Origin: a bacterium
GTDB lineage: Bacteria; Patescibacteriota; Patescibacteriia; Patescibacteriales; GWC2-42-12
DNA: 64,000 bases
Direction: 5' to 3'
NCBI GenBank assembly: GCA_030650415.1
Contig: JAUSEG010000011.1
Span: 1,687-65,686, forward strand
The notes under the pieces were generated by a model. It was not told the DNA's origin and ran no database searches. It was given only the letters and a program-made list of their open reading frames with translations. Position numbers and translations under genes: made by a program. This document shows positions 8,843-61,523 of the stretch, piece by piece (the first letter of the stretch is position 1; the number at the start of each line of letters is the position of its first letter).

Positions 8843-10651
8843 TTATTCGCTCATTAGCTTCTCCAGATGATTCTTGGCCTTAATCCTTCTCTTAATCTGA
8901 CCGCGGCGGGACTTTATTTGCTTTCTCAACTTAAATAATTGCCAAACCTGCTTTAAAATATGGCGCTCAAACACCAAGACGAATAAATTACTCTTTATTT
9001 CATACCAGATGGTTTTTAATATCACCGGCTTGGAATAGCTTGAATCAAGCATTTTTTGCAAAATGATATGATGATTCAGCCATGACCATTCTTTATATTT
9101 TTCCTTCTTGCCCAGACGGCCCTTGATAATGCCAATTATACCCCGGCCTCGCGAGCTTATCGCTCGATCATGATAAATTACGGCGTTCGGATTATAAAGG
9201 CACTTATAGCCGGCCCATTCAAGGCGGTAGGCCAAGTCCACATCTTCTTTATACATAAACATCAGTTCGTCAAAATATTCTTTTCTGCCATCTTCGTTTA
9301 TAAAAGCCACGTCGTCTAAGGCCGACAGCCGGTAGATAGCGGCCGCGCCCGAGGCGCCAAAGATTTCTTCTTCCCGATCAAATTGTCCATGATCGATATC
9401 GCCCTGTCCGCGATCCATAAAACGATGCTCCTTCGTAATATTTATGCCGACCGTATCTATAAAATTAGTTTTACCCTTGCCCTCGGAGTCGCGCTCGGAA
9501 AAATCCCAACGCTTGATTTTACAAGTCGCCGAAGCGATCTGGGGCGTTTTCATCACCGAATTAACCAACTCTGAAACTACGTTGGGTTCATAAATCATGT
9601 CAATATTGCTGGCCAAAAAATAGCTGGCGGCATTTTTTCTGGCTTGGGTAATAAGCAGATTAAAAGCGCGGGCAAAACCCAAATTCTCCCCGCTTCTTAA
9701 AATTTTCGCCTCCGGATAATTAGCTTTAATAAATTTAACATTGTCATTGTCTGCCAGCTCGCTATTATCCATGAAAATCAATTCAATATTGCCGTAATCC
9801 TGTTTTTTTATGGAATCAATAAAATACGGCAAGTATTTCGAAGTGCGGTAAGAACCGTCCCTGCTGTCATATAAAATTCCGCCGATCACCACCTTAGGCG
9901 CGATTTTATTTTCCAGTTTTAACGGCTCAAGAGGCTTATTAAAATTTTTAATGGCAAAAGCCGCGTCAACCAAGCTCTCGTGCGTTCCGGCATCAAACCA
10001 AAAACCCTTAACGAAGCCGGCCTGCATTTTTTTATCCCTGATATACAGGTTATTCAAATCGGTAATTTCCAATTCGCCGCGCGCCGACGGCTTCATGGTT
10101 TTAATATAGCTGAAAACCTTGCTGTCATAAATATAAACGCCGATCGAAGCCCAGTTGGATTTCGGCTTCTCCGGCTTTTCTTCAATGCCTAAAACTTTAT
10201 CACCGTCCAATTCGGCTACGCCGAATCTTTGCGGATCACCGACCTGTTTTAAAAATATTTTCGCTCCGGATTCAAACTCCTGAATGTCTTTTATAAGATT
10301 ATCTTCTAAAAGATTGTCGCCGAAAATCACCACGAAATTATCGTCAGCGACAAATTCTTCGGCCAAACCGACGGCGTAAGCCAGCCCGCCCGCGTGATCC
10401 TGAATTTTAAAAGTAAAATTGGCATTAAAATCCCGGCCCGAGCCTAAGAGCTTGGCGAAATCGCCGGCATGATCCTTACCCGGTAAAATTAAAATGTCTT
10501 TTATGCCGGCTTTTAAAAGAGTTTGAATTGGATAATAAATCATCGGCTGATTATAAACCGGCAATAAATGCTTGTTGGTAACTTTAGTATTGGGATAAAG
10601 GCGCGTTCCGCTGCCTCCGGCTAAAATAACACCCTTCATTTTTTTTGGCAT
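8843..10651 (-). CDS. Bifunctional protein: a glucose-1-phosphate thymidylyltransferase (RmlA-like) N-domain fused to a GT2 glycosyltransferase C-domain.
   Basis: The N-terminus MKGVILAGGSGTRLYPNTKVTNKHLLPVYNQPMIYYPI is the RmlA signature. Residues ~260-600 carry GT2 features (ELIFMDNSELADN, DxD, downstream acceptor-site region). Confidence 0.75.
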   Translation of the reverse strand: MPKKMKGVILAGGSGTRLYPNTKVTNKHLLPVYNQPMIYYPIQTLLKAGIKDILILPGKDHAGDFAKLLGSGRDFNANFTFKIQDHAGGLAYAVGLAEEFVADDNFVVIFGDNLLEDNLIKDIQEFESGAKIFLKQVGDPQRFGVAELDGDKVLGIEEKPEKPKSNWASIGVYIYDSKVFSYIKTMKPSARGELEITDLNNLYIRDKKMQAGFVKGFWFDAGTHESLVDAAFAIKNFNKPLEPLKLENKIAPKVVIGGILYDSRDGSYRTSKYLPYFIDSIKKQDYGNIELIFMDNSELADNDNVKFIKANYPEAKILRSGENLGFARAFNLLITQARKNAASYFLASNIDMIYEPNVVSELVNSVMKTPQIASATCKIKRWDFSERDSEGKGKTNFIDTVGINITKEHRFMDRGQGDIDHGQFDREEEIFGASGAAAIYRLSALDDVAFINEDGRKEYFDELMFMYKEDVDLAYRLEWAGYKCLYNPNAVIYHDRAISSRGRGIIGIIKGRLGKKEKYKEWSWLNHHIILQKMLDSSYSKPVILKTIWYEIKSNLFVLVFERHILKQVWQLFKLRKQIKSRRGQIKRRIKAKNHLEKLMSE

Positions 10652-10680
10652 AAGTATATATCAAATAAATAATTATAAAA

Positions 10681-11550
10681 TTACTTTGGCTCTTTACTAT
10701 ATAAATATTCTTTTAAGGCTTCCTGATAATTCCTTAACGGCGGCAGCTTGGTATTAAGCAGCACCGCGTACTTCGGCCTCTTGGCCGGGCGAACCAGCTT
10801 ATCGCCGGCTATTGGCTTGACTTCGGTTTCAATTTTAGCCAGTTTAAATAATTCCACCGCGGCTTCATACCAGGTGCAAGCTCCGCTATTGGTTAGATGA
10901 TAGATGCCATAACCATAACCGCCGTCTACTAATTCGCGCGTAGCTTTAGCCAAGTCCGGCGTATAAGTAAAACAGCTGGCTTCATCATCAACTACTTCCA
11001 CGCTGGCTTTATTCTTGCCCTGCTCAAGCATAATGTCAAAAAAATTTGCTTTAGCCATTTCGCTCTGTCCTCGAGGACCGAATAATTTTGAAGTTCTGAC
11101 TAAATACCATTTTAAACCCTGGCCGCTTAATTCTAAAATCCTTTTTTCGCCGTGAAACTTTGACTTGCCATAGCGATTGATCGGCTTGGGCTCATCGGTT
11201 TCAACGTAGCCGCTGTCTTTTTCACCGTTAAAAACGTAGTTGGTGGAATAATGAATTAAAGTAGCGCCGATTTTTAAACAGATTTCGGCTAAAAATTTCG
11301 GCCCGTCAATATTTAACTTTTTCGCCAATTCATATTCCTCGTCGTTATCCTCACATTTGTCCACGGCGTTATAGGCCGCGGCGTTAATCACCAGTTCGGG
11401 TTTTACTTCTTCGACTTTTCTTAAAATTAACTCTCGGTCGGTTATATCAATTTCTCCCCTGTCCCAGCCTAAAACTTCGTTTCCTTCGGCGAAAACTTTC
11501 ATTAATTGCCTGCCCAGACTGCCCTTAGCGCCTAAAATTAAAATTTTCAT
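10681..11550 (-). CDS. rfbD: dTDP-4-dehydrorhamnose reductase (RmlD). The start was moved to MKILILG, because the longer ORF start lies inside a repeat.
   Basis: MKILILGAKGSLGRQL Rossmann motif; length ~290 aa. The upstream 24 codons (MEMDSRLRGND...) are encoded by the palindromic repeat. Confidence 0.8.
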   Translation of the reverse strand: MKILILGAKGSLGRQLMKVFAEGNEVLGWDRGEIDITDRELILRKVEEVKPELVINAAAYNAVDKCEDNDEEYELAKKLNIDGPKFLAEICLKIGATLIHYSTNYVFNGEKDSGYVETDEPKPINRYGKSKFHGEKRILELSGQGLKWYLVRTSKLFGPRGQSEMAKANFFDIMLEQGKNKASVEVVDDEASCFTYTPDLAKATRELVDGGYGYGIYHLTNSGACTWYEAAVELFKLAKIETEVKPIAGDKLVRPAKRPKYAVLLNTKLPPLRNYQEALKEYLYSKEPK

Positions 11551-11686: not shown

Positions 11687-12417
11687 TAATAAATAATTTT
11701 CTCTAAATAGTTTTTTACTTCCAGCTGGCGTTTTAAAGGATTTTCCAATTCAATACTGATTATCTCAGCCAGATAATCTTTATATTTTTTTACATAATCC
11801 ACTTCGCTTAAATCGTCGAGCCAATGAGTGCTATAATCAGTATAGCTCTTATTTAAAAAACGATCTTGATAAGTAACCGGCTTTAATTTTACTGCGGAAA
11901 TATGATTAACGCCGATCTTATATTTTTTCGCCAAATCTTTAATTGTTATGAATTCTTCCGACTGCTCGCTTTTTGAAAGGGCGGCAGCTTGCCAATGGCT
12001 TAAATCTATACAGAGTCCGCCATATTTTTTTAAATCATTCTTTGTGGGTGAGCCTTCACTATTATTTTCAATATAAATATTTCTATTGTATTTTCCATAA
12101 TCAATTAAGAAGGGATACGGGGTATTTTCCGGATGAATATTAAAAACTTCGGTCTTAAAACGGCTAGCTAGATAATCCAACTCGGGAATCTCCATATCAT
12201 TTCTTAGATGCACGTGCGGAACGTTTTTCAAGCCGGTATTTTCCAAAAGCTTATATAATTCTTGTCTTTCCTCAAAATTCAAGCAAGTTAAAAATAAGGC
12301 AATTTCTTTTATGCCTAATTTATCAATCTCTTTAACTTTATTCCGCCATTCGCCTTTAGCAATAGTAGTTAAACCAAGCAAAATCTTTTTTACCCCGTTA
12401 GATGCTTTGTTATACAT
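11686..12417 (-). CDS. Putative sugar isomerase/epimerase (xylose-isomerase-like TIM barrel). Uncertain.
   Basis: GLCIDLSHW resembles the (L/V)ClDtgH motif of AP-endonuclease-2/xylose-isomerase-like TIM barrels. It sits between rmlD and rmlB. Confidence 0.35.
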   Translation of the reverse strand: MYNKASNGVKKILLGLTTIAKGEWRNKVKEIDKLGIKEIALFLTCLNFEERQELYKLLENTGLKNVPHVHLRNDMEIPELDYLASRFKTEVFNIHPENTPYPFLIDYGKYNRNIYIENNSEGSPTKNDLKKYGGLCIDLSHWQAAALSKSEQSEEFITIKDLAKKYKIGVNHISAVKLKPVTYQDRFLNKSYTDYSTHWLDDLSEVDYVKKYKDYLAEIISIELENPLKRQLEVKNYLEKIIY

Positions 12418-12536
12418 ATTTTATAGCCCCGATAAATTAAGGAATCTAACGGGGTGAATAATTTTACCTCTTAAACTACCTTAAATCTACCTAAAAATCA
12501 GCGTTTTGTCAAAGGTAAAAATCTTTTATAAAATAA

Positions 12537-12572
12537 AATACTCCCCTATTTAGGAGAGTATCTTATGAAAAA
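12537..12572 (-). terminator. Hairpin plus U-tract downstream of rmlB.
   Basis: On the minus strand, atactctcc-taaa-taggggagtat is followed by tttattttat. Confidence 0.4.
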
Positions 12573-12576
12573 AATT

Positions 12577-13608
12577 TTATTTTTTATATTGTCCGGAGTA
12601 GTAGCTGCTATAAATATCGCCTTCTTTAATCTTTCTCCACCACAGTTCATTATTCTTATACCACTCAATGGTTTTTAATAAACCCTCTTTTAAACTATAC
12701 TTATGGTTCCAGCCCAATTCATTCCTTAATTTTGAACTGTCTACGCCATAGCGGAAATCATGCCCGGGGCGGTCGGTGACGAATTCAATTAAGCTCGGCG
12801 GCTGATTAAGCAGGCGCGCCAATCGGCTGGACATTTCAATATTGCTAATTTCGTTGCTACTCGTGCTTATATTATAGACTTCGCCGATTCTGCCTTCATG
12901 AAAAATCAAATCCAAAGCTTCGCAGTTATCTAAAACATAAATCCAGTCGCGGCGGTTTAACCCGTAGCCGTAGAGCGGCGCCTTCTTGCCTTCCATTAAA
13001 TTAGTTATAAATAAAGGAATAAACTTTTCCGGATGCTGATAGGGACCGAAATTATTGGTCGTTCTGGTTATAATAACCGGTAATTTATAGGTTTCATAAT
13101 ATGATCTGACTAATAAATCGGCGCTGGCTTTTGAGGCCGCGTACGGACTGGCTGGCGTAAGCGGAGCCGTTTCCGAATAGTAACCGGTTTCAATACTGCC
13201 GTAGACTTCGTCCGTGCTGATATGCAAAAATTTCTTAATTTTAAATTTTCTGGCCGCCTCGAGAAGAGTCTGCGTGCCGAGAATGTTGGTAGATAAAAAT
13301 TCCTGCGGGTTGGTAATCGATCGGTCAACATGCGATTCGGCGGCGAAATGCACAACTCCGTCAACCTTGGAAATTAAACTTTCCACTATCAGGGTATTGC
13401 GAATATCGCCATTTACAAACCAATATCTTCTCTGCTCGGGCAAAGCGCCATCCCCGTAATTTTTCTCAACTTCAGTTAAATTATCTAAATTGCCGGCATA
13501 GGTTAAACTATCCAGATTGATGATAACATCGCCAGGATATTTATTTAACCAATAGCTTATAAAATTTGACCCAATGAAACCGGCCCCGCCGGTAACTAAT
13601 ATTTTCAT
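12577..13608 (-). CDS. rfbB: dTDP-glucose 4,6-dehydratase (RmlB).
   Basis: MKILVTGGAGFIGSNF, YxxxK and the ~340 aa length are typical of RmlB. Confidence 0.9.
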   Translation of the reverse strand: MKILVTGGAGFIGSNFISYWLNKYPGDVIINLDSLTYAGNLDNLTEVEKNYGDGALPEQRRYWFVNGDIRNTLIVESLISKVDGVVHFAAESHVDRSITNPQEFLSTNILGTQTLLEAARKFKIKKFLHISTDEVYGSIETGYYSETAPLTPASPYAASKASADLLVRSYYETYKLPVIITRTTNNFGPYQHPEKFIPLFITNLMEGKKAPLYGYGLNRRDWIYVLDNCEALDLIFHEGRIGEVYNISTSSNEISNIEMSSRLARLLNQPPSLIEFVTDRPGHDFRYGVDSSKLRNELGWNHKYSLKEGLLKTIEWYKNNELWWRKIKEGDIYSSYYSGQYKK

Positions 13609-18539: not shown

Positions 18540-18632
18540 ATTATAACATTTTGATAACGAATCATGAATTATGAATCATGGGGCTTGCTAATATTATTCT
18601 CTGCATTTTCCATAATTCATGATTCATTATTC
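18540..18632. repeat. MITE-like inverted repeat, family C2 (gaatcatgaattatgaatcatgg ... ccataattcatgattcattattc).
   Basis: A second copy with the same internal 'ttttccataattcat' lies at 22795-22897. The same motif is inserted in the PfkB CDS. Confidence 0.75.
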
Positions 18633-20185
18633 ATAATTCCTTTTCTGGCTTTAGGCGTTACCCAAAAACCCATATACTTTCCTAACATCATTCTGGTCTG
18701 CGCTTCCAGCCCCGGGATAGCGCCAAAAATTATAATGCTGATAGGTAAAATCAGCCATTGCAGTACCATGATAATGCTTTTTATAAAACTGTATTGGCTG
18801 GGGCGCTTAGGCAGGAGTATGGTTGAAATAATCGCTGAAAAAATCATGCCGACCATGGCGACAATCATCAAAGTCCGAGAGACCGCCGGCAAGTTGCTTG
18901 ATAAAACCGTAACATTAAAATTATTCCCGCCCAAAATCATCGGCAGCCAGCCGACGATGCCGATTATTAAAGAATTTGTCGCCCAAGAATGAAAACCGTA
19001 AAATTGAACTAAAATTTTATTTATCATCTTGCCAATCGGCAGGGTTTTTCTTTCCTTGATGGTATTAAACATTAAATACGGCAAATTTTCCACTCCCCAG
19101 CCCCAGCGTCTCTGCTGTTTGTATAGATTTTTTATGGTTTGCCAGACGGTTAAATCCATGCAAACGTCCATGGAAACCGGAAAATATAGCGGTTCAACCC
19201 GATAGTCTCCCCGATAGTAGCAATAACAATGCCAGAAAATGCGCGAATCCTCGCTCACCATATTGGTGGACCAAAAATCAATATCCAGAAGCGCCCGCCA
19301 AGTCATTGAATGCGAAGAATAGGTCGCCAACTTTTCCTGCCTGATCTGCTGCATCATCTGCCAAAAAGTATTTGAAGAAGCGGCTACTCGCGAAAAAAAC
19401 GGCGCTTGCCAAATATTATTGTGATAGATGGGAATCGGCTGATAGCTTGCCCGATAAGGATTCTTAACCGTTAAAAACTTATGAGTCAAACAGAAAAAAT
19501 ATCCGGAGATTACCACCGTATCCATGTCAAAAACGCTGATTAAAATTTTATCGTAATTATAATTAAACTTATCAATAATTTGAATTTTCACCTGCTTCGC
19601 CGCCCAAGTTTGATTTGCCCCCTTGCCTTTTAGCTCGCCGGCAAGATTATCCGGATGAACGGTAACTAAAAAATGTTTGAATTTAAAACCAAATTCCCGC
19701 TCAATCACTCTGGCTCTGGCCTTGGCTTCGGCTCCGGCCCGCTCTTCAATGGCTAAAACCACAATCATTTTATCTGCCGGATAGCCGTCCCTTATTAATC
19801 CCTCAAAACTTGGCCTGATTACTTCCAGGCTTTCATCGTAGGTTGGAAAAATAACCAGCTGAACAACTTCCGACCAATTTAAATTACTCCCAACGTTCAT
19901 CGGCAGTTTTTCGCATTTCTCGCGCCAATCAATTTTAACATTCTTCTTAATACCTATATAAGCGGCAAAAAGATGGATGCCTAAATAAATAACCAGGAGC
20001 AGCCAATAAACATCAAAACCAATAATAAAATATGCCGCCCAAACCGGCTTAAGCCAGGAAAATAAAACTAAAATAATCAGCGTAGCCCAAGAAAAACCAC
20101 CTGGTAAAATTTCCAACAAACGGTAAAGCCTTCTGTCTTTTTTTATAACCAGGTCGGAGGCTTTGCTGATTTTCAGGTAATTCAT
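18617..20185 (-). CDS. Membrane-embedded processive GT2 beta-glycosyltransferase (cellulose/chitin-synthase-like).
   Basis: QQRRWGWG (the Q(Q/R)xRW motif), D,D,D motifs, and multiple TM helices on both sides of the catalytic domain. Confidence 0.7.
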   Translation of the reverse strand: MNYLKISKASDLVIKKDRRLYRLLEILPGGFSWATLIILVLFSWLKPVWAAYFIIGFDVYWLLLVIYLGIHLFAAYIGIKKNVKIDWREKCEKLPMNVGSNLNWSEVVQLVIFPTYDESLEVIRPSFEGLIRDGYPADKMIVVLAIEERAGAEAKARARVIEREFGFKFKHFLVTVHPDNLAGELKGKGANQTWAAKQVKIQIIDKFNYNYDKILISVFDMDTVVISGYFFCLTHKFLTVKNPYRASYQPIPIYHNNIWQAPFFSRVAASSNTFWQMMQQIRQEKLATYSSHSMTWRALLDIDFWSTNMVSEDSRIFWHCYCYYRGDYRVEPLYFPVSMDVCMDLTVWQTIKNLYKQQRRWGWGVENLPYLMFNTIKERKTLPIGKMINKILVQFYGFHSWATNSLIIGIVGWLPMILGGNNFNVTVLSSNLPAVSRTLMIVAMVGMIFSAIISTILLPKRPSQYSFIKSIIMVLQWLILPISIIIFGAIPGLEAQTRMMLGKYMGFWVTPKARKGIMNNES

Positions 20186-20188
20186 AAA

Positions 20189-20947
20189 TTAACGATTTAA
20201 GCCGCCAACCAATTTTTTATTCCATCTGTGCTTAAAAACAGAATAAATATATCTCTTCATCTGGAAATTGAATAGGCACCAAAACAACTGATGAATTTTT
20301 TTAGGCCTGGTGACATTAGTAAAAGAACCGCGCTTAATCGCGGCAAAAATACTGGCCGCGTCAAAACTATCAGCCTCGATCAAAGCATAATCAGTATTAA
20401 AATATTTTAGAAAATGAGCATCCGAGGTAGCTACCAGGGGCTTATTGAATTTATCGGTAATTTTTCGAGTCTTTCTGTTGGAATTTAATAATCGCCGGGA
20501 ATAACACCAGCAGTGCTCCACGCTATCGAACAAATCTATATTTTTAACTAACTTTTTCTTGCCCATGGAGAAAAGACGAGTAGCTAGGGGGTGCGGCGCT
20601 AAAACAAAAATTTCCGGATGTTTTTCCTTGTACTCCGCTAATTTCTTAAAACTGTTTATTTTTTCAACCGCCGCGGCTTCTTGCGGATCAATGTTAAGAA
20701 TAATCAAGTCATTACGCTTAATTTTTCTCATCTGAAGTTCAACGCCCAAGAGCAAGATGATTCCCTTGCCGGCGGCATATTTAACATAATCATCTTTATA
20801 GATAACTTTTTTATGGCAAGTCAAGCCTAAAAGCTTAAAACCCAATTGCTCGGCCCAATCTATAAGCTCATAGACATTATATTTTATAAGATGCCCCTCA
20901 AGTTTATCCTCAATTGTATGAATATGCAGACTGGCTTTTACTATCAT
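20189..20947 (-). CDS. PHP-domain phosphoesterase (CpsB/YwqE-like).
   Basis: N-terminal LHIHT (HxH), APHP and C-terminal SDAH motifs. Confidence 0.5.
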   Translation of the reverse strand: MIVKASLHIHTIEDKLEGHLIKYNVYELIDWAEQLGFKLLGLTCHKKVIYKDDYVKYAAGKGIILLLGVELQMRKIKRNDLIILNIDPQEAAAVEKINSFKKLAEYKEKHPEIFVLAPHPLATRLFSMGKKKLVKNIDLFDSVEHCWCYSRRLLNSNRKTRKITDKFNKPLVATSDAHFLKYFNTDYALIEADSFDAASIFAAIKRGSFTNVTRPKKIHQLFWCLFNFQMKRYIYSVFKHRWNKKLVGGLNR

Positions 20948-21001
20948 AAATTAAACCAAAGTTAAATTTCCGGTAATTTAAAAACTCTGCTCGCCTCTTA
21001 A

Positions 21002-22792
21002 TTATGCCGCCCCGCCTGTCATGTCAGATCCCATGGCTTTATTTTGCCTGACCGAGGTTTTTTCGCTGATCCCGCGTTCTTCCGGCCTGCCTGCCCGATA
21101 GTTAGACTCTGCCTCCGAATATTTATTTTGATTTGAATAATCCGGCCTCGCTAGAGAAGCGGACTGGCCTATTTTAGACAATTCTTTTTCCTTAGCTTCC
21201 AGCCGTGATTTTACCTCTTGCTTCTTTTCGTTTTTCACGGCAATCAAACAATCCTTGCAAAAAATCGGCCTTATCCCATCCGGTATAAAGGATATTCGCG
21301 TTGTCTTAGCGCAACGGCTGCAGACGGCATCGTGCTTGCTGCTTTCCGATTGAATATCGGCTTTCGATCTGGATTTATCCAGACTTTCGTTATTTATGGC
21401 AGACGCCGGATTTCTCGGAATTTCTTTTTTTCTTTCAGCCGCCGGCCTGGCTGAAGTTTCTCTGTCCCTGGCTGGTCTTTTCTCCGACTCTCTTTCTCCG
21501 CCGTCGCTTTCGTCGTTATTCGTGTGCCAGCGGATAATTTTATCTTCAACGGACGTTCTCGGCTTAGAATATCTTTCTCGCGAAACTTTTATAACTTTTT
21601 CTTTATTGTTGGTTTTCTCCGCCTCGCTAAAAGGCGGCAAACCTCTAGCCGAAAAAGGATCGGAGGAAACTCCGTCAATCATTAATTTTATGTAAAATTC
21701 ATATTTAGTCAAATTTACTAAGTCTTCCTCTAAAAATACCGGGGTAAATTCTTTAACTAGCTCTTCGGCGTCAGTCGCGCCGACTCGAAAAACAATTAAC
21801 GTGCCGACGTTGCCGAAAACCGCCGGCTTAACGATTTCGCCGAGCTGCTCGATATATTGATGAGCCATAACTAGATTCAGCCGATATTTTCTGGCCTCGG
21901 ATAAGATATTGGCAAAACTGTCGGTCGTAAAATTTTGAAATTCATCAATATAAAGATAAAAATCTTGGCGATCTCTTTCCAATATATCAACCCGGCTCAT
22001 AACCGCCAGCTGCACCTTAGTAATCATCATGGCGCCTAAGAGCGCCGAATTATCTTCGCCGATTCTGCCCTTGCTTAAATTCATAATCAAAATTTTTCCG
22101 CTATCCATGACTTCCCTTAAATCGATGGTTGATTTAACCTGGCCGACGATATTTCTGATTAAAGAGCTTGATAAAAACTGCCCGACTTTATTTTGAATCG
22201 GCGAGACCGCTTCGGAAGCGAAATTATTGGCATAGCCGGCGAATTCGTTGACCCAAAAAGATTTAACCACCGGATCCTGAATTTTTTCAATAACTTTTTT
22301 TCTAAAATTCTTATCAGAGAGCATTCTGGTAATCGCCAGGAGCGTTGAGTCAGGATAATCCAAAATCGCCAAAATGGCATTCCTTAAAATATACTCGAGC
22401 CGAGGCCCCCAGGAATCGGCCCAGAGTTTTTTAAAAACTCCGATTAAGCCGGAAGCAACCAAGTGCCTTAAGTGCGGCTCAACCTTTTCGACCACGTTAA
22501 AGGCGATCGGGTAGTCCATATCGGCCGGATTGAAATAAATTACATCATTAACCCGGTTAGCCGGTATATAATCAATAACTTTTTCGGCTAAATCGCCATG
22601 CGGATCAACCACCATCACGCCTTTTCCAGATCTAATATCGTCAATAATCATATTTTCTAAAACCGTGGACTTACCCATGCCGGTTTTTCCAACCAAGTAC
22701 ATATGCCGGCGGCGATCGTCGATTTTAATGCCGAACTTTCTATGTTCGTTGCGGAAGTTGGTTTCGGCGAAAACTGTAATTTGATCTGACAT
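21002..22792 (-). CDS. VirD4/TraG/TrwB-like P-loop ATPase (type IV coupling-protein family) with a disordered, charged C-terminal tail and a CxxC...CxxC zinc ribbon.
   Basis: Walker A YLVGKTGMGKST; Walker B LYIDEFQNF; a TraD/TraG-like C-region AHQYIEQLGEIVKPAVFGNVGTLIVFRVGATDAEEL; a C-terminal CSRCAKTTRISFIPDGIRPIFCKDC. No TM segments in this ORF. Confidence 0.55.
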   Translation of the reverse strand: MSDQITVFAETNFRNEHRKFGIKIDDRRRHMYLVGKTGMGKSTVLENMIIDDIRSGKGVMVVDPHGDLAEKVIDYIPANRVNDVIYFNPADMDYPIAFNVVEKVEPHLRHLVASGLIGVFKKLWADSWGPRLEYILRNAILAILDYPDSTLLAITRMLSDKNFRKKVIEKIQDPVVKSFWVNEFAGYANNFASEAVSPIQNKVGQFLSSSLIRNIVGQVKSTIDLREVMDSGKILIMNLSKGRIGEDNSALLGAMMITKVQLAVMSRVDILERDRQDFYLYIDEFQNFTTDSFANILSEARKYRLNLVMAHQYIEQLGEIVKPAVFGNVGTLIVFRVGATDAEELVKEFTPVFLEEDLVNLTKYEFYIKLMIDGVSSDPFSARGLPPFSEAEKTNNKEKVIKVSRERYSKPRTSVEDKIIRWHTNNDESDGGERESEKRPARDRETSARPAAERKKEIPRNPASAINNESLDKSRSKADIQSESSKHDAVCSRCAKTTRISFIPDGIRPIFCKDCLIAVKNEKKQEVKSRLEAKEKELSKIGQSASLARPDYSNQNKYSEAESNYRAGRPEERGISEKTSVRQNKAMGSDMTGGAA

Positions 22793-22794
22793 AA

Positions 22795-22897
22795 TAAATG
22801 CAAATGAATTATGAATAATGAATTATGAATAATGGAATTTTACTGATTAATTTTTGCGTTTTCCATAATTCATAATTCATTATTCCTAATTCATCTA
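22795..22897. repeat. MITE-like inverted repeat, family C2 copy.
   Basis: gaattatgaataatgaattatgaataatgg...ttttccataattcataattcattattcctaattc. Confidence 0.75.
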
Positions 22898-24361
22898 TTA
22901 TACCACCGGTAAATTGCTTGGCGGTTCGGCTTTAATTATAATCTGGGGTTTTATGTCGCCCCCGCCGCTATCCAGATTAAATATATCCGATCCGGAACCG
23001 CCTCCGGCCAGCTCTTCAACCGCCCGATCTCTGATTACCGGCAAACTGGACGGCGGTTCGGCTTTTCTGCCCGGCGCTTTCTGAATCGAAGGCGATTTAA
23101 CCGAAGCCTCAACCGGAAAGTGCCAAATTGTGGCCAGCTCTTCGGTATTAAGTATATGCGGCATGCGCCCTCTAATATCGCTCCGATATTTATAAGCGAT
23201 CATTAATTTCATTTTCCTGGCATTAAGGCGGGATTTGCCGAAAATCATATTATACTTCAGCTTGGTTATGGTGCCGTAGTCGCCAACGTCCGGTTTATAT
23301 GAATTTAAATCATTAAAATTAAATTGCTTCATGTAGCCGGTAAAACCATAACTGACTTTATTTTTATTAATTACTTCTTTCCTGGCCACATAAGCATATC
23401 TGATTTTTACTTCAAAACCTAATTTACCGACCTTCTCCTGAATTTCCTCTATCTGCCTTTTCTGCTTTGGCTTTAAATTCATCATCTTAAATTGTTCCTC
23501 TTTTTTTTCCGGTTTTTTATCGTCTTCGATGTCTGACCAGAGAGGATAGATTATCTCACTTATAAAAGTCATCGATTTCACCAGGCTATCTGAAAGTTTA
23601 TCAACTAAATTGTTCCTGCTGGTTTTTTCGCCGATGATCCTTTTTATTTCCTCGTCGCCTTCTTCCGCCCAGTCCTGGCCGATCGGTATTACCAGTATCT
23701 GATACCATAATTGCTCGCCCTTCTTTAAACTGCCCATTAAATCCATCAGCGCGGCCATCGGATCTTTAAACTGGGTTTCCGGCTCGCCCATAGTATGTTC
23801 AAAGTGCTCATAAGTCTTAATCGGATAAACCGAATTTTCAATCAACTTAAATTCCCCGCCGAAAACATCATATTGATCATCAGGATACTTTGTCGGAAAA
23901 CCCTCGGTATAATCATTAACTTCGGTAATCTCCGCGTCAGGATATTGCGAATAAATCGCGGCGTCAACCAAATAACGGTATTTTTCCGGCGCCCAGATTA
24001 AAAATTGAATATAGCCGTCAATGCTGACGATCTCAAAGCTGAAATATAATTGCCACTCTCCCTTCCACCATTTTTCATAAAGATCCTGAGTGCTATGGGC
24101 GCCGGCCAGATAGGCAAAAATATTTTCCACGGCCCTGGGCGTTTGAGCGTTGCCTCGGGGAATATCAATCGCCAATAAAATGGTTTTTTGTTTCGCGCCA
24201 AAAGCCAGTCTTATATATCTAAGCCAGACCTGAGTGGTCCCCCAAACGAAGGCAATAGCCAGCGGAATCCAGCCTACATAGAGAAGCACATATAACAACA
24301 GCTGATCCGAGGGCAAACTTAAAAAATTTAAAATTGGCTGTAAATCTATGACTATATTCAT
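22898..24361 (-). CDS. Membrane-anchored hypothetical protein (two N-terminal TM helices and a ~430 aa soluble domain with a Lys/Glu-rich segment). Likely partner of the downstream VirD4-like ATPase.
   Basis: LLLYVLLYVGWIPLAIAFVWGTTQVWL TM region. The gene is separated from the ATPase by one repeat only, on the same strand. Confidence 0.45.
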   Translation of the reverse strand: MNIVIDLQPILNFLSLPSDQLLLYVLLYVGWIPLAIAFVWGTTQVWLRYIRLAFGAKQKTILLAIDIPRGNAQTPRAVENIFAYLAGAHSTQDLYEKWWKGEWQLYFSFEIVSIDGYIQFLIWAPEKYRYLVDAAIYSQYPDAEITEVNDYTEGFPTKYPDDQYDVFGGEFKLIENSVYPIKTYEHFEHTMGEPETQFKDPMAALMDLMGSLKKGEQLWYQILVIPIGQDWAEEGDEEIKRIIGEKTSRNNLVDKLSDSLVKSMTFISEIIYPLWSDIEDDKKPEKKEEQFKMMNLKPKQKRQIEEIQEKVGKLGFEVKIRYAYVARKEVINKNKVSYGFTGYMKQFNFNDLNSYKPDVGDYGTITKLKYNMIFGKSRLNARKMKLMIAYKYRSDIRGRMPHILNTEELATIWHFPVEASVKSPSIQKAPGRKAEPPSSLPVIRDRAVEELAGGGSGSDIFNLDSGGGDIKPQIIIKAEPPSNLPVV

Positions 24362-24409: not shown

Positions 24410-24445
24410 AATAAAAAAACACCCCGCAAAATGCGGGGCGTATTT
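24410..24445 (-). terminator. Rho-independent terminator downstream of the sigma-like gene.
   Basis: On the minus strand, ccccgcattttgcgggg is followed by tgttttttta. Confidence 0.55.
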
Positions 24446-24482: not shown

Positions 24483-25709
24483 TTACTTTTCGGTTAGAGC
24501 TCTATCTTTAATTGCATATTTGCCGTCTGAAGCCGGCTCAAATTTATCCCGATTCATCAAAGCCAAGTTAATCGTCGCCTTCTTAACCATTCTTTGCCCC
24601 AAAACTTTATTAATAATTTCTTCGCGGTTTAGCGGGCGATCGGCTTCTATCATGACTTTTTCAATTACTTCGGTGACCGTGCCTTTCTCATAGCCCCATT
24701 CCTTTAAGCCGTAAAGGCCGCGTCCGACTAAAATATATTTATCGTCTAAAATCAATTCATTATGAACCGTAGCCGCGTTGGCCTGCTTTTTATCAAAACC
24801 GATTTGATTGATTCTATCGGCAATCTCGGCGAAATGCATGGGCTTGCTGTTATTTTTTAGAATTAAATAAATTTTATCATTAATAGTCTTGGGCTTAATC
24901 TCGCGCGATTCATCAATGCCCCAATGGCCGAATTTATTCTGTTCAATTTTCTTAGCGGCTTGAAGAACCGAATAAAGCGCTTTGTTTTGATTAATGAAGT
25001 CGGCCGGCTCCTTGAATAAATTGCTGACTAAGACACCGGAAATATCAAGATTATTGGTTTGCTTGAATTTATCTTCGCTGGCCTTATAAGCGCTAAGCTC
25101 TTTTGATAAGTTAATCAGATCTTCGGTCATGAAGATTTTTTTAGCTTCTCTGACTTTAGCTAAAAGTTCAACAGTCAAATTTTCCAGATGCTCAAGCGAC
25201 TGATATTTCAATTTTAAAGATTCTTTAAAAACTGCCGAATCATTGATTTCCTCGAATTCACTATGCAATAACCGGGAAATTAAAAAGTCAAAATGGCGCT
25301 TATGCTTTATCTCATTTTCTTCTTTTTTGCCGGCGCCAATGGAAAAGTTAACTAAATTATTAAATAAGTATTCCTTTTCCATAAATCCGCCATGTTCTTC
25401 CAGTAAATGGATAATAACATTTTTCAAACCGGACAAATAGCTATCCAAATTTTCCAGCTGTTTCAGCCGTTTGATGCTTGAAGTTTCGATTTGCCTGATC
25501 CTTTCCCTGGTTAAACTATGGATCTTGCCGATTTCCTCCAAAGTTTCCTTATCATCGCCATGCAAGCCGAAGCGCCTGACTAAAATATCGCGCTCTCTTT
25601 CGTTGAGTTCGCTGAATAAACCATTGATAATTTCAATCGCGTCAAGCATGGCCACTTCTTCGGCTTGGTGATTATTGATTATTTGGTCTAAGATGGATTT
25701 ATTTTCCAT
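24483..25709 (-). CDS. Sigma-70 region-4 (HTH) domain protein with a C-terminal HARE-HTH domain. Putative RNAP-associated regulator.
   Basis: The N-terminus ERDILVRRFGLHGDDKETLEEIGKIHSLTRERIRQIETSSIKRL is sigma70 region 4. The C-terminus MHFAEIADRINQIGFDKKQANAATVHNELILDDKYILVGRGLYGLKEW is a HARE-HTH (RpoE-delta-like) domain. No region 2 is recognisable. Confidence 0.55.
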   Translation of the reverse strand: MENKSILDQIINNHQAEEVAMLDAIEIINGLFSELNERERDILVRRFGLHGDDKETLEEIGKIHSLTRERIRQIETSSIKRLKQLENLDSYLSGLKNVIIHLLEEHGGFMEKEYLFNNLVNFSIGAGKKEENEIKHKRHFDFLISRLLHSEFEEINDSAVFKESLKLKYQSLEHLENLTVELLAKVREAKKIFMTEDLINLSKELSAYKASEDKFKQTNNLDISGVLVSNLFKEPADFINQNKALYSVLQAAKKIEQNKFGHWGIDESREIKPKTINDKIYLILKNNSKPMHFAEIADRINQIGFDKKQANAATVHNELILDDKYILVGRGLYGLKEWGYEKGTVTEVIEKVMIEADRPLNREEIINKVLGQRMVKKATINLALMNRDKFEPASDGKYAIKDRALTEK

Positions 25710-26219
25710 AATTCGGTGAACTCATTACAAGTCTTAATATTTTATTATTCACTAAAACAAAATTTCTTTTCTACGATTCTCGCCCCGAGCTTGTCGAGGG
25801 GTAGAATTTCTATAAATTGCCGGGGGAAAATTATATTAAACAAGATAAATTAACTTCTGTCTATATTTAATTAATATTGCTTTACGCGGTCAATTTTTAC
25901 TCTGATTTATTTTATGAAAACATATTAACATATTTTTTTTTATAAGTCAAGGGGTATTATAATAATATCTATAATTAGCCATATATATTAAACAATCTTA
26001 ATTTCTAAATAAATTTGCAGCCATAAAAAATCTTAAAATAATTATCTAATATTAACACTAATTTTTATATAGGTTGACATTTATACTGACTTATGATACG
26101 GTATTTTATCGTTCATTAAAAAATTTATGTCTGTGAAACTGCCACTAGACGACTATAAGTAGCCGCCTGATTGCAGTTTCGCAGTATAAACAAACCAAAA
26201 ACAAAAAACAAGTAAAACT

Positions 26220-26426
26220 ATGAGAAAATCATTCCTTTGGCTCTTCGGCTGCATCGCTGGGCTTATCCTCGCAATCGTGCTGTCGTTCAAAGCCAGCACC
26301 ATCAAAATCGTGCCGGTGCAAATTACCAACTCGCAAACCGAGACATCGGTAACTCTGGCGCCTGTCGCGCCGGAGTCCAATCGGGTGACGGTTAACTTCA
26401 GCGGTGTCCAACCGGTCATCAAGTAA
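26220..26426 (+). CDS. Small (68 aa) signal-peptide/TM protein in the GC-rich island.
   Basis: MRKSFLWLFGCIAGLILAIVLS hydrophobic N-terminus. GC-rich codons and an A/C-rich SD-less leader. Confidence 0.4.
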   Translation: MRKSFLWLFGCIAGLILAIVLSFKASTIKIVPVQITNSQTETSVTLAPVAPESNRVTVNFSGVQPVIK

Positions 26427-26463
26427 TGTCGGTCAACAAAAACAAAAAAACAGCAGAAACAAA

Positions 26464-27636
26464 ATGAAAAAAACAATGTCGGTAATAGCACTGGCGCTTC
26501 TCGCAGCCAGTGTAATGTTCGCTCAAGACCTTCCACCCGTCTCCGGTGGCGACAATTCAGGCGGAGGCGGATCGGGCGGTGGCGGTGGAAGCTCTGTGCC
26601 GCCAACCTTCACGGGGCCTGACAAGGTGCCGTTGGCTTCGCCAAAGGTGCTACAGGCCTACGCCCTGACCCTGGTCGGAACGATAGGAGTGCAAGTGTAC
26701 GGAAATTCGGTCTCCGGCGACAGTTATCGCTGGGTGGACTACCCGTACGAGGATGCCGACCCCGATCGCATGGCCAGCATAGCCAGTTCGATCGAGCTGA
26801 AATTCAGCGCAACCACGGATGATCAACTGACTTCATGGGTGTCGTATAACAGTCGAATGTTCACCCTGACAGACCCGGATGAAAATGAAGTCACAACCGC
26901 ATTTGGCTTGTTCAACGGAGGCAAAAACTTCAAGCTTGAATACTTCAAAGATGCGTGGCGGGTGCCTACCAACGCCTACGCTGTTGAACTTGAGGTTGGC
27001 CAAGTTCCTTGGGTAGTCCCTGGGATGAGAAATGCCTACATCACGACTCGAGATGAAAAAGGCAACTACACCGGATACTACGATTTCCGGCAACAGCAGG
27101 GCGACTACTGGCTGGATCGCGGGGTTATATTCCTTACCGAGCAACTGACCTCTCGCCGCGGAGACCTAACCACGATTTTGGAAAACGGTTCCAAGGTCGT
27201 CTATGACATCACAAGCGGTTGGCGAAAATACTCGCCGACGATCAAGGGTAGCGGCTTCAAGCCGACGATCAAAGGGATTCGGACCGTGCCTGACAATACG
27301 ATTGATATTGTTTATCGGGAAACAGACGAAATCGTCAGAGTCGCCTACACTGGGGATTATCACGGCTCAAACACGTTTCAAAATGTGTTTGTGGAATTCC
27401 CTGGAGAACTGAAGCGGTATCCGGCCAAAGTTTTTGTCATCGACACGAGACTCTTGGCGTTAAACCCTGACGCCGAATGGCTGGAATTCAATCCGTATGT
27501 TGAGCCGGTATGGTTCAGGATGAAAGTCGGCCAAGCCGTGCTCATCCGCTTCGAGTACCAAATCGATCCGGAGCCGCTGGACAATGGTGGCGGCGGTAAG
27601 GGCGCCAAAGTCGCGCCAGTCAAGCTTGAGGAGTAA
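26464..27636 (+). CDS. Secreted hypothetical protein (signal peptide, Gly/Ser linker, ~330 aa domain of unknown function). The start was set at MKKTMSV.
   Basis: MKKTMSVIALALLAASVMFAQD signal peptide, a GGGGSGGGGGSS linker, GC ~55% against ~37% for the flanks, and a terminator at 27669-27706. Confidence 0.55.
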   Translation: MKKTMSVIALALLAASVMFAQDLPPVSGGDNSGGGGSGGGGGSSVPPTFTGPDKVPLASPKVLQAYALTLVGTIGVQVYGNSVSGDSYRWVDYPYEDADPDRMASIASSIELKFSATTDDQLTSWVSYNSRMFTLTDPDENEVTTAFGLFNGGKNFKLEYFKDAWRVPTNAYAVELEVGQVPWVVPGMRNAYITTRDEKGNYTGYYDFRQQQGDYWLDRGVIFLTEQLTSRRGDLTTILENGSKVVYDITSGWRKYSPTIKGSGFKPTIKGIRTVPDNTIDIVYRETDEIVRVAYTGDYHGSNTFQNVFVEFPGELKRYPAKVFVIDTRLLALNPDAEWLEFNPYVEPVWFRMKVGQAVLIRFEYQIDPEPLDNGGGGKGAKVAPVKLEE

Positions 27637-27668
27637 CCCCAAGCAAATTTTGCACCTTCAAAAACAAC

Positions 27669-27706
27669 AGCGCCAGCTTCACCTCGAAGCCGGCGCTCTT
27701 TTTTTA
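27669..27706 (+). terminator. Rho-independent terminator of the island transcript.
   Basis: agcgccagcttc-acctc-gaagccggcgct followed by ctttttttt. Confidence 0.6.
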
Positions 27707-27722
27707 CTTAAAATTTTCCTTC

Positions 27723-27861
27723 TGTCATTGCGAGAAGTAAAATTCATTCGTCATTCTGGAGGGAGCGTCAGCGACCGATAGAATCTCATAATATAACATG
27801 AGATGCTATCGCTCCACTTCGTTCCGCTCCAGCATGACAAAAAAAGTCGCTCGCAATGACA
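27723..27861. repeat. Compound nested-palindrome repeat (outer tgtcattgcgag/ctcgcaatgaca, inner family A).
   Basis: Three concentric inverted-repeat pairs are read directly. The element is nearly identical to 31113-31259. Confidence 0.85.
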
Positions 27862-27871
27862 ATCATTATAT

Positions 27872-32861: not shown

Positions 32862-35051
32862 TTATTTATTCTCCCTCGCCTTCACCGACGTAATTAGGCC
32901 ATGGCGTTTTTCCAACCAGGCCGGCGGAATCAGACTCAAGAAATTTCTGGTGATAAAGATCGCGGTAAACATGGAAATTATAACGCCCAAGCCTAAAGTT
33001 ACCGCGAACCCCTTAACCGCGCTGGTAGTGAACATGATTAAAATTAGACAAATTATCAGAGTATTAAAATTACTATCCCTGATCGACGGCCAGGCGCGTT
33101 TAAAGGCTTCGTTTAAGGCCACGGACAATGGCTTGCCGGCTAAAATTTCTTCTCGTAGTCTCGCAAAAATTAAAATATTAGCGTCCACAGCCATGCCGAC
33201 CGAGACGATCGCTCCGGCTAGTCCGGCCAAAGTAAGAGTTACCGGCGCCAAACCGCCGATGAAATACAAAATAATATAGCTCAAGAATGCCAATAAGATA
33301 AACCAACTATTAACCGTAATACCGATGATTAAGAAAATGCCGACTAAGACCAGCGCTGCCATGGAAAAACCGATTTTAAATAAAGTAAATACCAATAAGC
33401 TATAAACTACCAGAGCCAAAACCGCCATTAATCCCGGTAATCTATAGAAGACAATCATGAATAAAGCGATTATTACAAAAGCGATTAAACCGGCGCGCAG
33501 GCTATCATCAACAGATTTTTGCCCTAGGCTTGGGCCAACGGTTTGCTGATTAACTAAGTTAATCGGTACGGGCAAAGCGCCGGCGTTTAGCCGTTGCGCG
33601 AGAAGCTTAGCTTCGGTAATGTTAAATTTTCCGGAAATTACCGCTTTACCGCCGCTAATTTTTTCATTAACATTCGGTATGCTGATGGCGTAGCCGTCTA
33701 AATAAATCGCCACCGGTTTATTAATATTGCGAGCCGTTATGGTTTCAAAAAATTTCGCGCCTTCATCGTCAAAAGCCAGAGAGACTTCGGGGGAACCATC
33801 TTGAGGATTAAACTCCACCGATGAGGTCTTTAAATTTCGACCGGTCAATTCAGTATTCTTCCATTCGCTTTGCACGCCGATAATATCCTGCTCGATTTTA
33901 GTCTTTATGAAAATATGGCTTAAATTAAATTCTTGAATTTTTCTTTCTTCCTGTTTATAAATTAAGTGCCAGCCGAATTCGGTTTCAACCGGGCCGGAAA
34001 TCGTACCCACCGCCTGTTTAAAGACTTCGTCTTCAAACGGCTTGACCATAGCGCCCAAACTGAACCAACCCAACTCGCCGCCCGAGTCTCGCGCGCCAGG
34101 TTCGGTGGAATTCTGCTTAATTAAATCTTTAAAATTTGCCGGCGTAGCCTCTAGTTTTAATTTATTGACTTTTGCCAAAGCTTCTTCTTTAGTAAAACCG
34201 CTTTCGCAACCGGTATTATCTTTAAAACAAATCAGAAGATGCGAAGCCTTTACTTCTTTTTCCGGCTGATTATTGAAAGGATTAATTTTTTCTCTCTTGC
34301 CTTCGACTTTAATAATTTCAAAACCGCCGTTAATACGCCCTAAATCGGCGCTCGATTTTCCTACGGCAATATTTTTCGCTAAATTATATATTCCCGGGTT
34401 ATCTTTTTCCGTAATCCAACCCAGACTTCCGCCGTTAGCTTTAGTTTTTTCATCTTCGCTATAAGCCGCAGCCAGGGCCTTAAAATCTCCGCCGGATATA
34501 ACTTTGCCTAAAACCTCGGTAGCGCGCGCTTCAGCCGCCTTATTATAATCATTCAACTCTTTAGTTTCCGCGTCAGTCATTTTCCTAATTTCTTTATTTT
34601 CTTCCTTAAATTCCAAGAGCGGAGTTTCGCCGATATTTTTAATCGCCTGCTTAATATCTTTAATACCGGCCAGTTCAACGATTATCCGGTAATCGCCGCC
34701 GGAAGTTCGGTTAATTTGCACATTAGGCTCGCTGACGCCAAAAATGTTTATTCTTCTTTCAATTACATCGCGAACGCCTTCAACCGCATTACCTTTATCG
34801 GCGGTTGCGATAGCGCTAACATCAGCCTGATAAGTTAATTGCGTACCGCCCTGAAGATCAAGCCCCAACCTAAAAGGCATTTCTTTAACTTTAGGGAAAG
34901 GCGCTTTAAATTTATCGACCGCTCGATTGTAATAAGATCCGAAATCAACCAGCGACGTCGCTAAAACCAGTAAAATAATACCAACAAAGGTCCACCAAAT
35001 CTTTCCACGGCTGGTGGGTTTTAATAATTTCTGTAAAATGTTGTCAGACAT
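32862..35051 (-). CDS. secD: Protein-export membrane protein SecD with two parvulin-type PPIase domains inserted in the periplasmic head domain.
   Basis: SecD N-terminus LGLDLQGGTQLTY; a C-terminal six-TM region; internal ...ANGGSLGWI... and ASHLLI...SGGELGWFSLGAMVKPFEDEVFKQAVGTISGPVETEFGWHLIYK parvulin signatures. Confidence 0.85.
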   Translation of the reverse strand: MSDNILQKLLKPTSRGKIWWTFVGIILLVLATSLVDFGSYYNRAVDKFKAPFPKVKEMPFRLGLDLQGGTQLTYQADVSAIATADKGNAVEGVRDVIERRINIFGVSEPNVQINRTSGGDYRIIVELAGIKDIKQAIKNIGETPLLEFKEENKEIRKMTDAETKELNDYNKAAEARATEVLGKVISGGDFKALAAAYSEDEKTKANGGSLGWITEKDNPGIYNLAKNIAVGKSSADLGRINGGFEIIKVEGKREKINPFNNQPEKEVKASHLLICFKDNTGCESGFTKEEALAKVNKLKLEATPANFKDLIKQNSTEPGARDSGGELGWFSLGAMVKPFEDEVFKQAVGTISGPVETEFGWHLIYKQEERKIQEFNLSHIFIKTKIEQDIIGVQSEWKNTELTGRNLKTSSVEFNPQDGSPEVSLAFDDEGAKFFETITARNINKPVAIYLDGYAISIPNVNEKISGGKAVISGKFNITEAKLLAQRLNAGALPVPINLVNQQTVGPSLGQKSVDDSLRAGLIAFVIIALFMIVFYRLPGLMAVLALVVYSLLVFTLFKIGFSMAALVLVGIFLIIGITVNSWFILLAFLSYIILYFIGGLAPVTLTLAGLAGAIVSVGMAVDANILIFARLREEILAGKPLSVALNEAFKRAWPSIRDSNFNTLIICLILIMFTTSAVKGFAVTLGLGVIISMFTAIFITRNFLSLIPPAWLEKRHGLITSVKARENK

Positions 35052-52308: not shown

Positions 52309-52311
52309 AAA

Positions 52312-58019: not shown

Positions 58020-58023
58020 AAAT

Positions 58024-59016: not shown

Positions 59017-59020
59017 ATAT

Positions 59021-60457: not shown

Positions 60458-60478
60458 AAAAAATAAATAATTAAAATT

Positions 60479-61513: not shown

Positions 61514-61523
61514 AAATTTAATA

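Follow-up and report, generated by a model that had tools for sequence, protein, structure and literature searches.

Type IV coupling proteins (T4CPs) such as VirD4, TrwB and TraD contain a nucleotide-binding domain of the FtsK/HerA superfamily and normally carry their transmembrane (TM) domain in the same polypeptide. Genomes of Patescibacteria have about two VirD4-like genes each, nearly all of them far from type IV secretion system (T4SS) genes; a survey of 2,918 Patescibacteria genomes counted 5,713 such homologues, of which only 148 lie near virB4, and suggested exaptation, with the role of the genes left open in 2025 (Quinonero-Coronel et al. 2025, PMC12102498). A further group is known from Bacillus phages, where the 0305phi8-36 homologue of SPO1 gp27.4 was given the name coupling ATPase as part of a 'DNA translocation operon' that is dispensable and includes a relaxase, and has been described as having a VirD4-like C-terminal ATPase and an N-terminal domain without TM helices (PMC3357382). 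Here we consider a 64 kb stretch of a contig from a Patescibacteria metagenome-assembled genome, referred to throughout as the window, whose minus strand encodes a soluble ATPase of the VirD4/TrwB type (596 aa, 21002-22792) downstream of a membrane protein (487 aa, 22898-24361) that we call MEM. As in T4CPs there is an FtsK/HerA-superfamily nucleotide-binding domain in the ATPase, for which a low-confidence model suggests a helical insert, whereas the anchor is the product of the neighboring gene and consists of one TM helix and a ∼360-aa DUF8128 domain. Comparisons with fused relatives show that, as judged from sequence, the two genes are halves of one ancestral VirD4/TrwB-family T4CP of Patescibacteria type, and that the N-module of this type is made of one TM helix plus DUF8128 in place of the usual two-helix membrane domain. 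The locus as a whole is best explained, and in our view quite likely so, by a split coupling ATPase of the T4CP type that serves as a membrane-tethered motor for DNA or nucleoprotein. While the T4CP machine itself is already known, a naturally split T4CP with a DUF8128 N-module is new.

The motor half is of the T4CP type and groups with TrwB, DotL and Cagβ. Its Pfam matches are to TrwB_AAD_bind (1.2e-11, residues 22-342), DUF87 (4.9e-7), T4SS-DNA_transf and TraG-D_C, a sequence search of the PDB returns TrwB as best match (5e-5) with DotL next, and hhalign gives 91.4% for TrwB vs 1.8% for TrwK. Foldseek, run with a model whose predicted local distance difference test score (pLDDT) is just 53, yields four significant matches, to TrwB (5.9e-6), DotL (9.9e-6) and Cagβ (1.8e-4); HerA appears at an E value of 0.06 or worse and VirB4 is not among the matches. 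The Walker A motif GKTGMGKS (residues 35-42, 22667-22690 on the minus strand, as are all features given below unless noted) is invariant in 36 homologues, and D283 and E284 of the Walker B motif YLYIDE (residues 279-284, 21941-21958) are invariant as well. A helical block between the P-loop strands (residues 106-231), modeled with a confidence of 40-75, is spanned by the TrwB_AAD_bind profile. No hydrophobic 19-mer of the ATPase reaches 1.6, the maximum being 1.39, so that no TM helix is predicted. These properties, namely Walker A and B motifs, a TraD/TraG-type C-terminal region and the lack of TM helices, had been noted in the original prediction, which was made from the DNA letters, and are confirmed by sequence and Pfam, as is the long charged tail, for which we find 45% D/E/K/R in a disordered linker (residues ∼425-484, 21341-21520, pLDDT below 50). 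The linker is followed by a zinc ribbon at residues 487-516 (21245-21334; zf_Tbcl_2 1.3e-9; TIGR04272) with four invariant cysteines, C491, C494, C512 and C515, whose spacing is CxxC-x17-CxxC and not the CxxC-x15-CxxC first reported; zinc binding by this domain is known from M. mazei proteins (PMC12704099). Neither an FtsK_SpoIIIE motor, nor a 4TM N-domain, nor a gamma-domain is matched in Pfam or NCBIfam, only the generic DUF87 is matched of the HerA class, and there is no NurA or Sir2 partner; a plain FtsK/SpoIIIE or HerA profile, which had been named as the outcome that would speak against a coupling protein, is not seen, the closest relatives being T4CPs. The NCBIfam match to CedD is weak and confined to the P-loop region. 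The ATPase gene is chromosomal, with 65-84% identity across genera.

MEM is a DUF8128 (PF26449) protein according to precomputed matches on P0001, a deposited protein 100% identical to it, and on 119 of 120 listed homologues; the DUF8128 profile matches 2,391 clusters at 50% identity. That the open reading frames (ORFs) are not chance ones is clear from the numbers of homologues, more than 2,100 for MEM and more than 8,000 for the ATPase. Two N-terminal TM helices had been proposed for MEM, of which we find one, the sole hydrophobic segment of at least 1.6 (residues 19-43, 24233-24307), predicted to run N-out/C-in. Negative charges (D6, D19) precede the span and positive ones (R48, R51, K57, K59) follow it, and the large domain is therefore predicted to be cytoplasmic. 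In the AlphaFold2 model, with an overall pLDDT of 73.7, helices are placed at residues 18-28 and 31-57, followed by the predicted cytoplasmic α/β DUF8128 domain (residues ∼60-415, 23117-24184, pLDDT mostly 80-93), which ends in LNxEELATIWHFP, and by a disordered tail with pLDDT below 50.

The relationship between the halves is established by proteins in which both are present. PHROG 5156, a family of unknown function with 824 positions, matches MEM at 76-289 (3.3e-18) and the ATPase at 408-812 (1.2e-68). Bacillus phage G gp156 (825 aa), to which precomputed Pfam data assign PF26449, has matches to MEM and ATPase within a single gene by tblastn (8e-4 and 2e-41), in hidden Markov model (HMM) scores for the two halves (5e-21 and 9e-53), and by hhalign (97.9% for MEM over gp156 residues 17-322 and 99.9% for the ATPase). 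Both halves are matched as well in SPO1 gp27.4 (906 aa), more weakly than in gp156 by HMM and hhalign, and among phage records the ATPase occurs in 35 from Bacillus phages, two from deep-sea phages and one from a Microcystis phage. With gp156 as the query, a search gave about 90 Patescibacteria proteins of 725-1142 aa with PF26449 and PF10412, from Berkelbacteria, Saccharibacteria, Gottesmanbacteria and Falkowbacteria, where the fused protein is a second paralogue. Ninety of 92 long Patescibacteria proteins have DUF8128 (∼7-390) and then directly the ATPase (∼388-813), and the N-terminal hydrophobic segment is kept in 63 of the 92. The zinc ribbon is present in 119 of 120 and 112 of 123 members of the split-type sets vs 1 of 92 fused proteins. 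In a rough neighbor-joining tree the split ATPases form one group nested among fused forms (clade A), with a separate fused clade B; no fused paralogue was found within 13.3 kb on the contig of locus L003.

The position of the break can be read from the junction, which in the fused proteins is ...LNIEELASIFHLP...KKGEPPANLPIE...ELTVFAKTDYR...GKTGTGKS. MEM of the window ends ...LNTEELATIWHFP...KAEPPSSLPVI, followed by ∼35 disordered residues and KAEPPSNLPVV-COOH, and the ATPase of the window begins MSDQITVFAETNFRN. The break lies between the linker motif EPPxNLP and the first conserved ATPase stretch, ITVFAETNFR, and from this comparison the gene was therefore broken exactly at the domain boundary, with duplication of the linker motif. 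The proximal copy, KAEPPSSLPVI (residues 433-443, 23033-23065), corresponds to GEPPANLP, the linker in front of the ATPase of fused proteins, and is found in 158 of 247 MEM homologues, with P437 and L440 invariant. The C-terminal copy, KAEPPSNLPVV-COOH (residues 477-487, 22901-22933), has N483 and L484 as invariant residues; 216 of the 247 homologues show PxNLP at their terminus, and MEM alone carries this motif among 1,405 ORFs of related loci. On the basis of this conservation the terminal motif probably tethers the ATPase to the membrane half in trans. The suggestion of a split coupling protein that has MEM as its membrane half is thus supported, and in essence correct, given the conservation of the pair described below, the fused forms and a break at the domain boundary; as for its nature, MEM does supply the anchor, yet it does not consist of TM helices only, joining a single one to the ∼360-aa DUF8128 domain, whose modeled fold is like that of the VirB4 N-terminal domain.

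Conservation was evaluated from both sides, using 80 GTDB species loci found via MEM, of which 78 are informative for the ATPase, and 80 metagenome loci found via the ATPase, 67 with enough upstream sequence. The ATPase lies directly downstream of DUF8128 in 45 of the 78 loci, and 58 of the 67 have a co-oriented DUF8128 gene immediately before the ATPase, with one further case at 2 kb; six of the eight exceptions in the latter set keep an ATPase-GT2 pair elsewhere (GT2 being the glycosyltransferase discussed below). Adjacency of MEM and ATPase is kept in four looked-up lineages with only 33-36% MEM identity. The pair is thus conserved together in both search directions, as the original prediction had asked to be checked. 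In the Uhrbacteria locus L085 two ATPase paralogues follow DUF8128 in tandem (9587-11527 and 11764-13251), the first with a zinc ribbon and uncalled in the source annotation, the second (496 aa) without the tail.

Four co-oriented ORFs, all where they had been placed originally, occur in a row on the minus strand of the window, with gaps of 105, 54 and 3 bp from MEM through the ATPase to a PHP phosphoesterase (252 aa, 20189-20947; Pfam PHP and PHP_C) and a membrane glycosyltransferase of the GT2 type (522 aa, 18617-20185). The latter has several TM segments and a weak Glyco_trans_2_3 match (22.4 bits vs a Pfam cut-off of 27), and neither protein has sequence matches in the PDB. Both had been counted as part of the module. 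However, PHP is found in 6 of 80 DUF8128 loci and GT2 in 38 of 80, with GT2 not seen in distant lineages, and the conserved unit therefore comprises two genes, without GT2 or PHP, which are clade-specific neighbors outside of it. The slot between ATPase and GT2 holds PHP in the window and a few relatives, and a 190-aa RNase_T/DEDD exonuclease where DUF8128 is not upstream (8251-8823 in L097 and 9919-10491 in L101); the two proteins are unrelated and both of nuclease type. Upstream of MEM is a gene for a protein with Sigma70_r4 and HARE-HTH domains (24483-25709), called SIG in what follows, which is separated from MEM by a strong terminator-like hairpin at the end of SIG (24419-24441, a 10-bp stem with 7 GC pairs and a T run). 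SIG precedes DUF8128 in 68 of 80 loci, distant lineages included, often with SecDF in front of it, and is a conserved upstream neighbor that would be at most a candidate member of the unit. S. epibionticum has an essential counterpart of SIG, SEML1_0294, in which both domains are likewise present. We also considered SIG as a disguised relaxase, a counterpart of SPO1 gp27.3, and rejected this, as no similarity is seen by HMM or hhalign.

The loci of the fused relatives differ in their surroundings. P0466 (clade A) and P0496 (clade B), from loci L175 and L176, divergently adjoin PrgI, TraC-like and VirB4 genes. In the Berkelbacteria-type loci L173 (2556-8784) and L177 (1407-7814) two fused paralogues of ∼830 aa and ∼930 aa (clade A) stand in tandem, and the tree puts the ∼830-aa copy of L177 in clade B. 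A short ORF of 106-178 aa with no Pfam match lies before each of the paralogues, as a similar one does before the clade-B genes of L172 and L174; its counterpart in S. epibionticum, SEML1_0141, is essential. Phage G has the VirB4-like gp155, the fused gp156 and an HNH endonuclease in a row (L170, 3223-7867), and SPO1 the actin-like partition protein gp27.9, the fused gp27.4 and the nickase gp27.3 (L171, 2774-8284). That gp27.3 is a Replic_Relax protein fits the relaxase pairing of the phage operon.

The modeled DUF8128 fold is similar, by Foldseek, to the VirB4 N-terminal domain, at TM-scores near 0.3. The 12 best matches of the model in the PDB are all to TrwK/VirB4 of R388 (E 1.9e-4 to 8e-3), and among viral models the matches are to phage G gp156 (1.5e-15), to other Bacillus-phage homologues and to the VirB4-like gp155 (5e-6). 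Because the Foldseek list holds no other P-loop ATPase, the matched part is most probably the domain specific to VirB4. VirB4 (TrwK), TrsD and TraC-like proteins have a common bipartite plan with the pair, an α/β N-domain of ∼350 aa and a P-loop domain of ∼420 aa, fused in ∼800 aa, while the ATPase half of the pair is nearer to TrwB than to TrwK by hhalign. No link between DUF8128 and VirB4 emerged from PDB profile searches or from a Pfam scan of 78 diverse members with E values up to 10.

The mechanism that we propose for a split coupling ATPase is as follows. MEM would sit N-out/C-in with its DUF8128 domain in the cytoplasm, and its flexible tail, through the retained EPPxNLPxx motif, would dock the soluble ATPase in trans. 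The ATPase would form a ring at the membrane, as TrwB does, and would spend ATP on passing its substrate to, or drawing it into, a membrane conduit distinct from the pair; DNA or nucleoprotein is the most probable substrate. The zinc-ribbon tail would be a gain of the split lineage. As for the conduit, we hold a Patescibacterial monoderm-type T4SS encoded elsewhere and some other structure to be equally plausible, each less likely than not, with ComEC close behind. A T4SS is favored by the PrgI, TraC-like and VirB4 genes beside the fused relatives P0466 and P0496 and by the 148 T4CP genes counted near virB4, and in view of these relatives the contrast with a classical T4SS drawn in the original prediction is at most tentative.

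Several observations weigh against a split T4CP. Comparison of DUF8128 by hhalign with TrwK, TrsD and TrsE gives no sequence or profile signal, and comparison with Patescibacterial TraC-like, VirB4 and PrgI proteins gives nothing; since a sequence-level link to VirB4, TrsD or TraC-like proteins was not found, the likeness to the VirB4 N-terminal domain is one of structure. The structural model of the ATPase is poor (pLDDT 53) and the tree is one without support values. In 33 of the 78 loci found via MEM the ATPase is not within 8 kb, the genes being apart in about 40% of sampled species; since 31 of these 33 belong to MEM clusters made up of non-adjacent loci only, the separation is clade-specific. 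There is no T4SS gene or relaxase beside any of the ∼165 split-type loci, nor in the window, where a Pfam scan of 40 of the 55 ORFs that reach 150 aa found no VirB4, relaxase or further T4CP-like gene and an HMM of the fused family run over all ORFs likewise found none, in line with the statement of the original prediction that VirB4 and relaxase are missing nearby. Finally, the T4SS is essential in S. epibionticum, a member of the Saccharibacteria, but SEML1_0293, the probable orthologue in this group, is not. SEML1_0293 has 921 aa with a TrwB domain at 402-719 and lies directly downstream of SEML1_0294, the orthology being drawn from synteny; the essential SEML1_0142 corresponds, also by synteny, to the clade-B fusion P0452.

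The last two points speak for a rival that is still live, though we regard it as less likely than not, and that takes up the DNA-uptake option of the original prediction, namely that the split, SIG-linked paralogue with its zinc ribbon was exapted from conjugation to DNA import through ComEC, in the manner of ComFA in Firmicutes or CedB/CedD in Sulfolobales. The tethered motor would then pull incoming single-stranded DNA into the cytoplasm, where nearby nucleases would process it. ComEC (DUF4131 and Competence) adjoins the module in three ways, standing behind the ATPase in L083, immediately ahead of DUF8128 in L095 and ahead of SIG in L051, and T4SS genes do so in none of the ∼165 loci; still, three is a small number out of ∼165, the estimate that it exceeds chance leans on a guessed number of independent rearrangements, and the 64 kb of the window include no ComEC. 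Also consistent with such a role are the zinc ribbon gained in the split lineage and the nuclease-type enzyme encoded next downstream of the ATPase, either a PHP phosphoesterase or an exonuclease of the RNase_T type. The conserved com set listed for the candidate phyla radiation consists of ComEC, DprA and ComFC and does not contain ComFA. The screen that found SEML1_0293 to be non-essential gave the same result for comEC, comF and dprA, an argument that is limited by an orthology taken from synteny. T4SS-derived ATPases with domains like the VirB4 N-terminal domain do import DNA in Sulfolobales (PMC11868833). No T4CP is known from experiment to act with ComEC.

A broader version of this proposal, in which DUF8128-T4CPs are a third lineage of T4SS-type ATPases and the split paralogue has been exapted as the missing DNA-import motor of ComEC, is improbable when both parts are taken jointly. 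The organisms concerned cannot make nucleotides. If the joint claim were true, a lineage combining a VirB4-like N-domain with a VirD4-like motor would be common to Patescibacteria and large Bacillus phages, and its Parcubacteria-type paralogue would have gained a zinc ribbon and a peptide tether and become a functional analogue of ComFA or CedB/CedD.

That the ATPase works with GT2, and perhaps PHP, to export or assemble a polymer of the cell envelope is suggested by the linkage of ATPase and GT2 in 38 of 45 adjacent loci and its persistence in six loci without DUF8128 upstream, and glycan-synthesis genes abound in the window. We consider it very unlikely, as GT2 is not beside the pair in distant lineages nor in any fused form looked up, no T4CP is known to move polysaccharide, and the PHP slot holds an exonuclease in other loci. 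Slightly less credible still is an FtsK-like translocase for segregation or division that replaces FtsK in reduced genomes: the ATPase superfamily is the same, the gene is chromosomal with the 65-84% identity across genera given above, and it sits among the genes of SecA, SecDF, MreBC and MurB, but the FtsK_SpoIIIE, 4TM and gamma-domain matches are lacking and the structural neighbors are T4CPs, not FtsK. Such a role is also unlikely because Saccharibacteria keep an essential FtsK; replacement was rejected given that S. epibionticum retains the canonical, essential SEML1_0096 and can dispense with the T4CP-like SEML1_0293. Anti-phage defense, with a HerA- or MADS-mad8-like ATPase and an effector partner, is the least probable of all, since the PADLOC matches that favor it, mad8 (2.6e-17) and HerA (3e-11) for the ATPase and MzaA for SIG via sigma region 4, are generic to ATPase and HTH folds and are not accompanied by any for MEM, PHP or GT2, the other mad genes are not found beside the ATPase and no neighbor except for the MzaA case has a PADLOC match, the pair is vertically inherited in a housekeeping neighborhood with synteny conserved across the phylum, and 2.9 million viral contigs contain only three matches. 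The defense option of the original prediction is therefore disfavored, its only support being the generic match of the ATPase to mad8.

Turning to the window at large, the minus strand carries 53 of its 55 ORFs of at least 150 aa, the GC skew is negative throughout, and searches of the 64 kb for tRNAs and Rfam families gave none. Genes near the pair are for housekeeping functions and glycan synthesis (SecA, SecDF, MreBC, MurB, rhamnose and nonulosonic-acid enzymes). A phage or mobile origin of the window copy was considered and rejected in view of this context and of just three matches among the 2.9 million viral contigs of IMG/VR. Beyond SIG is a 2.1-kb stretch (25710-27871) with a GC content of 0.47 vs about 0.41, which looks like a lineage-specific insertion because murB adjoins SIG in the 79%-identical relative L001; it includes the sole plus-strand gene of the neighborhood (26404-27636, 410 aa), whose product has a signal-peptide-like N-terminus and a Gly/Ser-rich stretch and gives no Pfam or PHROG match. 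SecD (32862-35051) has PPIC-type peptidyl-prolyl isomerase (Rotamase) domains inserted between its P1 subdomains, an architecture that recurs in the distant Patescibacteria loci L084, L085 and L086. Surface glycans occupy much of the window, with rhamnose and glycosyltransferase genes at 5.9-16.9 kb and a cluster of the nonulosonic-acid type at 50642-62648 that encodes NeuB, a CMP-transferase, two Polysacc_synt_2 dehydratases, a Capsule_synth protein and two DegT aminotransferases, one of them fused to GNAT.

The results give the orphan T4CPs of Patescibacteria a defined N-module, TM helix plus DUF8128, with a fold predicted to be like that of the VirB4 N-domain, extend the family to the coupling ATPases of Bacillus phages, and distinguish two paralogue clades, A and B. 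Also new is that one large lineage encodes the protein as two genes with a short conserved C-terminal peptide, which we propose as the joint between them. DUF8128, a Pfam family of unknown function, thereby gains a context, and a concrete candidate for a protein-protein interface can be named. In the tractable Southlakia epibionticum, SEML1_0293 and SEML1_0142 offer an entry to separating T4SS coupling from DNA uptake.

It is useful, in closing, to place the pair among the systems with which we began. Very probably it belongs, together with its relatives, to the gene set of the 2025 survey (PMC12102498). That survey does not report the domain architecture, the split form with its DUF8128 N-domain, a division into two paralogue clades or any relatives in phages. 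Compared with conventional T4CPs, an association with relaxase or VirB4 is not found for the window pair, which is chromosomal and vertically inherited and has an added zinc-ribbon tail, while the fused relatives of L175 and L176 do have associations of this kind, as do the SPO1 and phage G proteins. The coupling ATPases of Bacillus phages (0305phi8-36 orf201, SPO1 gp27.4, phage G gp156) are homologous to the pair over both halves; they are fused, have no TM helix, EPPxNLP tail or zinc ribbon, are only 21-28% identical to it, and are neighbors of a Replic_Relax nickase and an actin-like protein (SPO1) or of a VirB4-like ATPase and an HNH nuclease (phage G). CedB/CedD of Sulfolobales likewise combine a TM segment, a domain like the VirB4 N-terminal domain and an ATPase of the HerA/VirB4 superfamily, and, as with the pair, they are T4SS-derived, chromosomal and without a relaxase (PMC11868833). 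They are archaeal single polypeptides with an ATPase of the HerA clade and with DNA import established by genetics, whereas the pair described here, a T4CP-type motor and a separately encoded DUF8128 anchor, is known from its genes.

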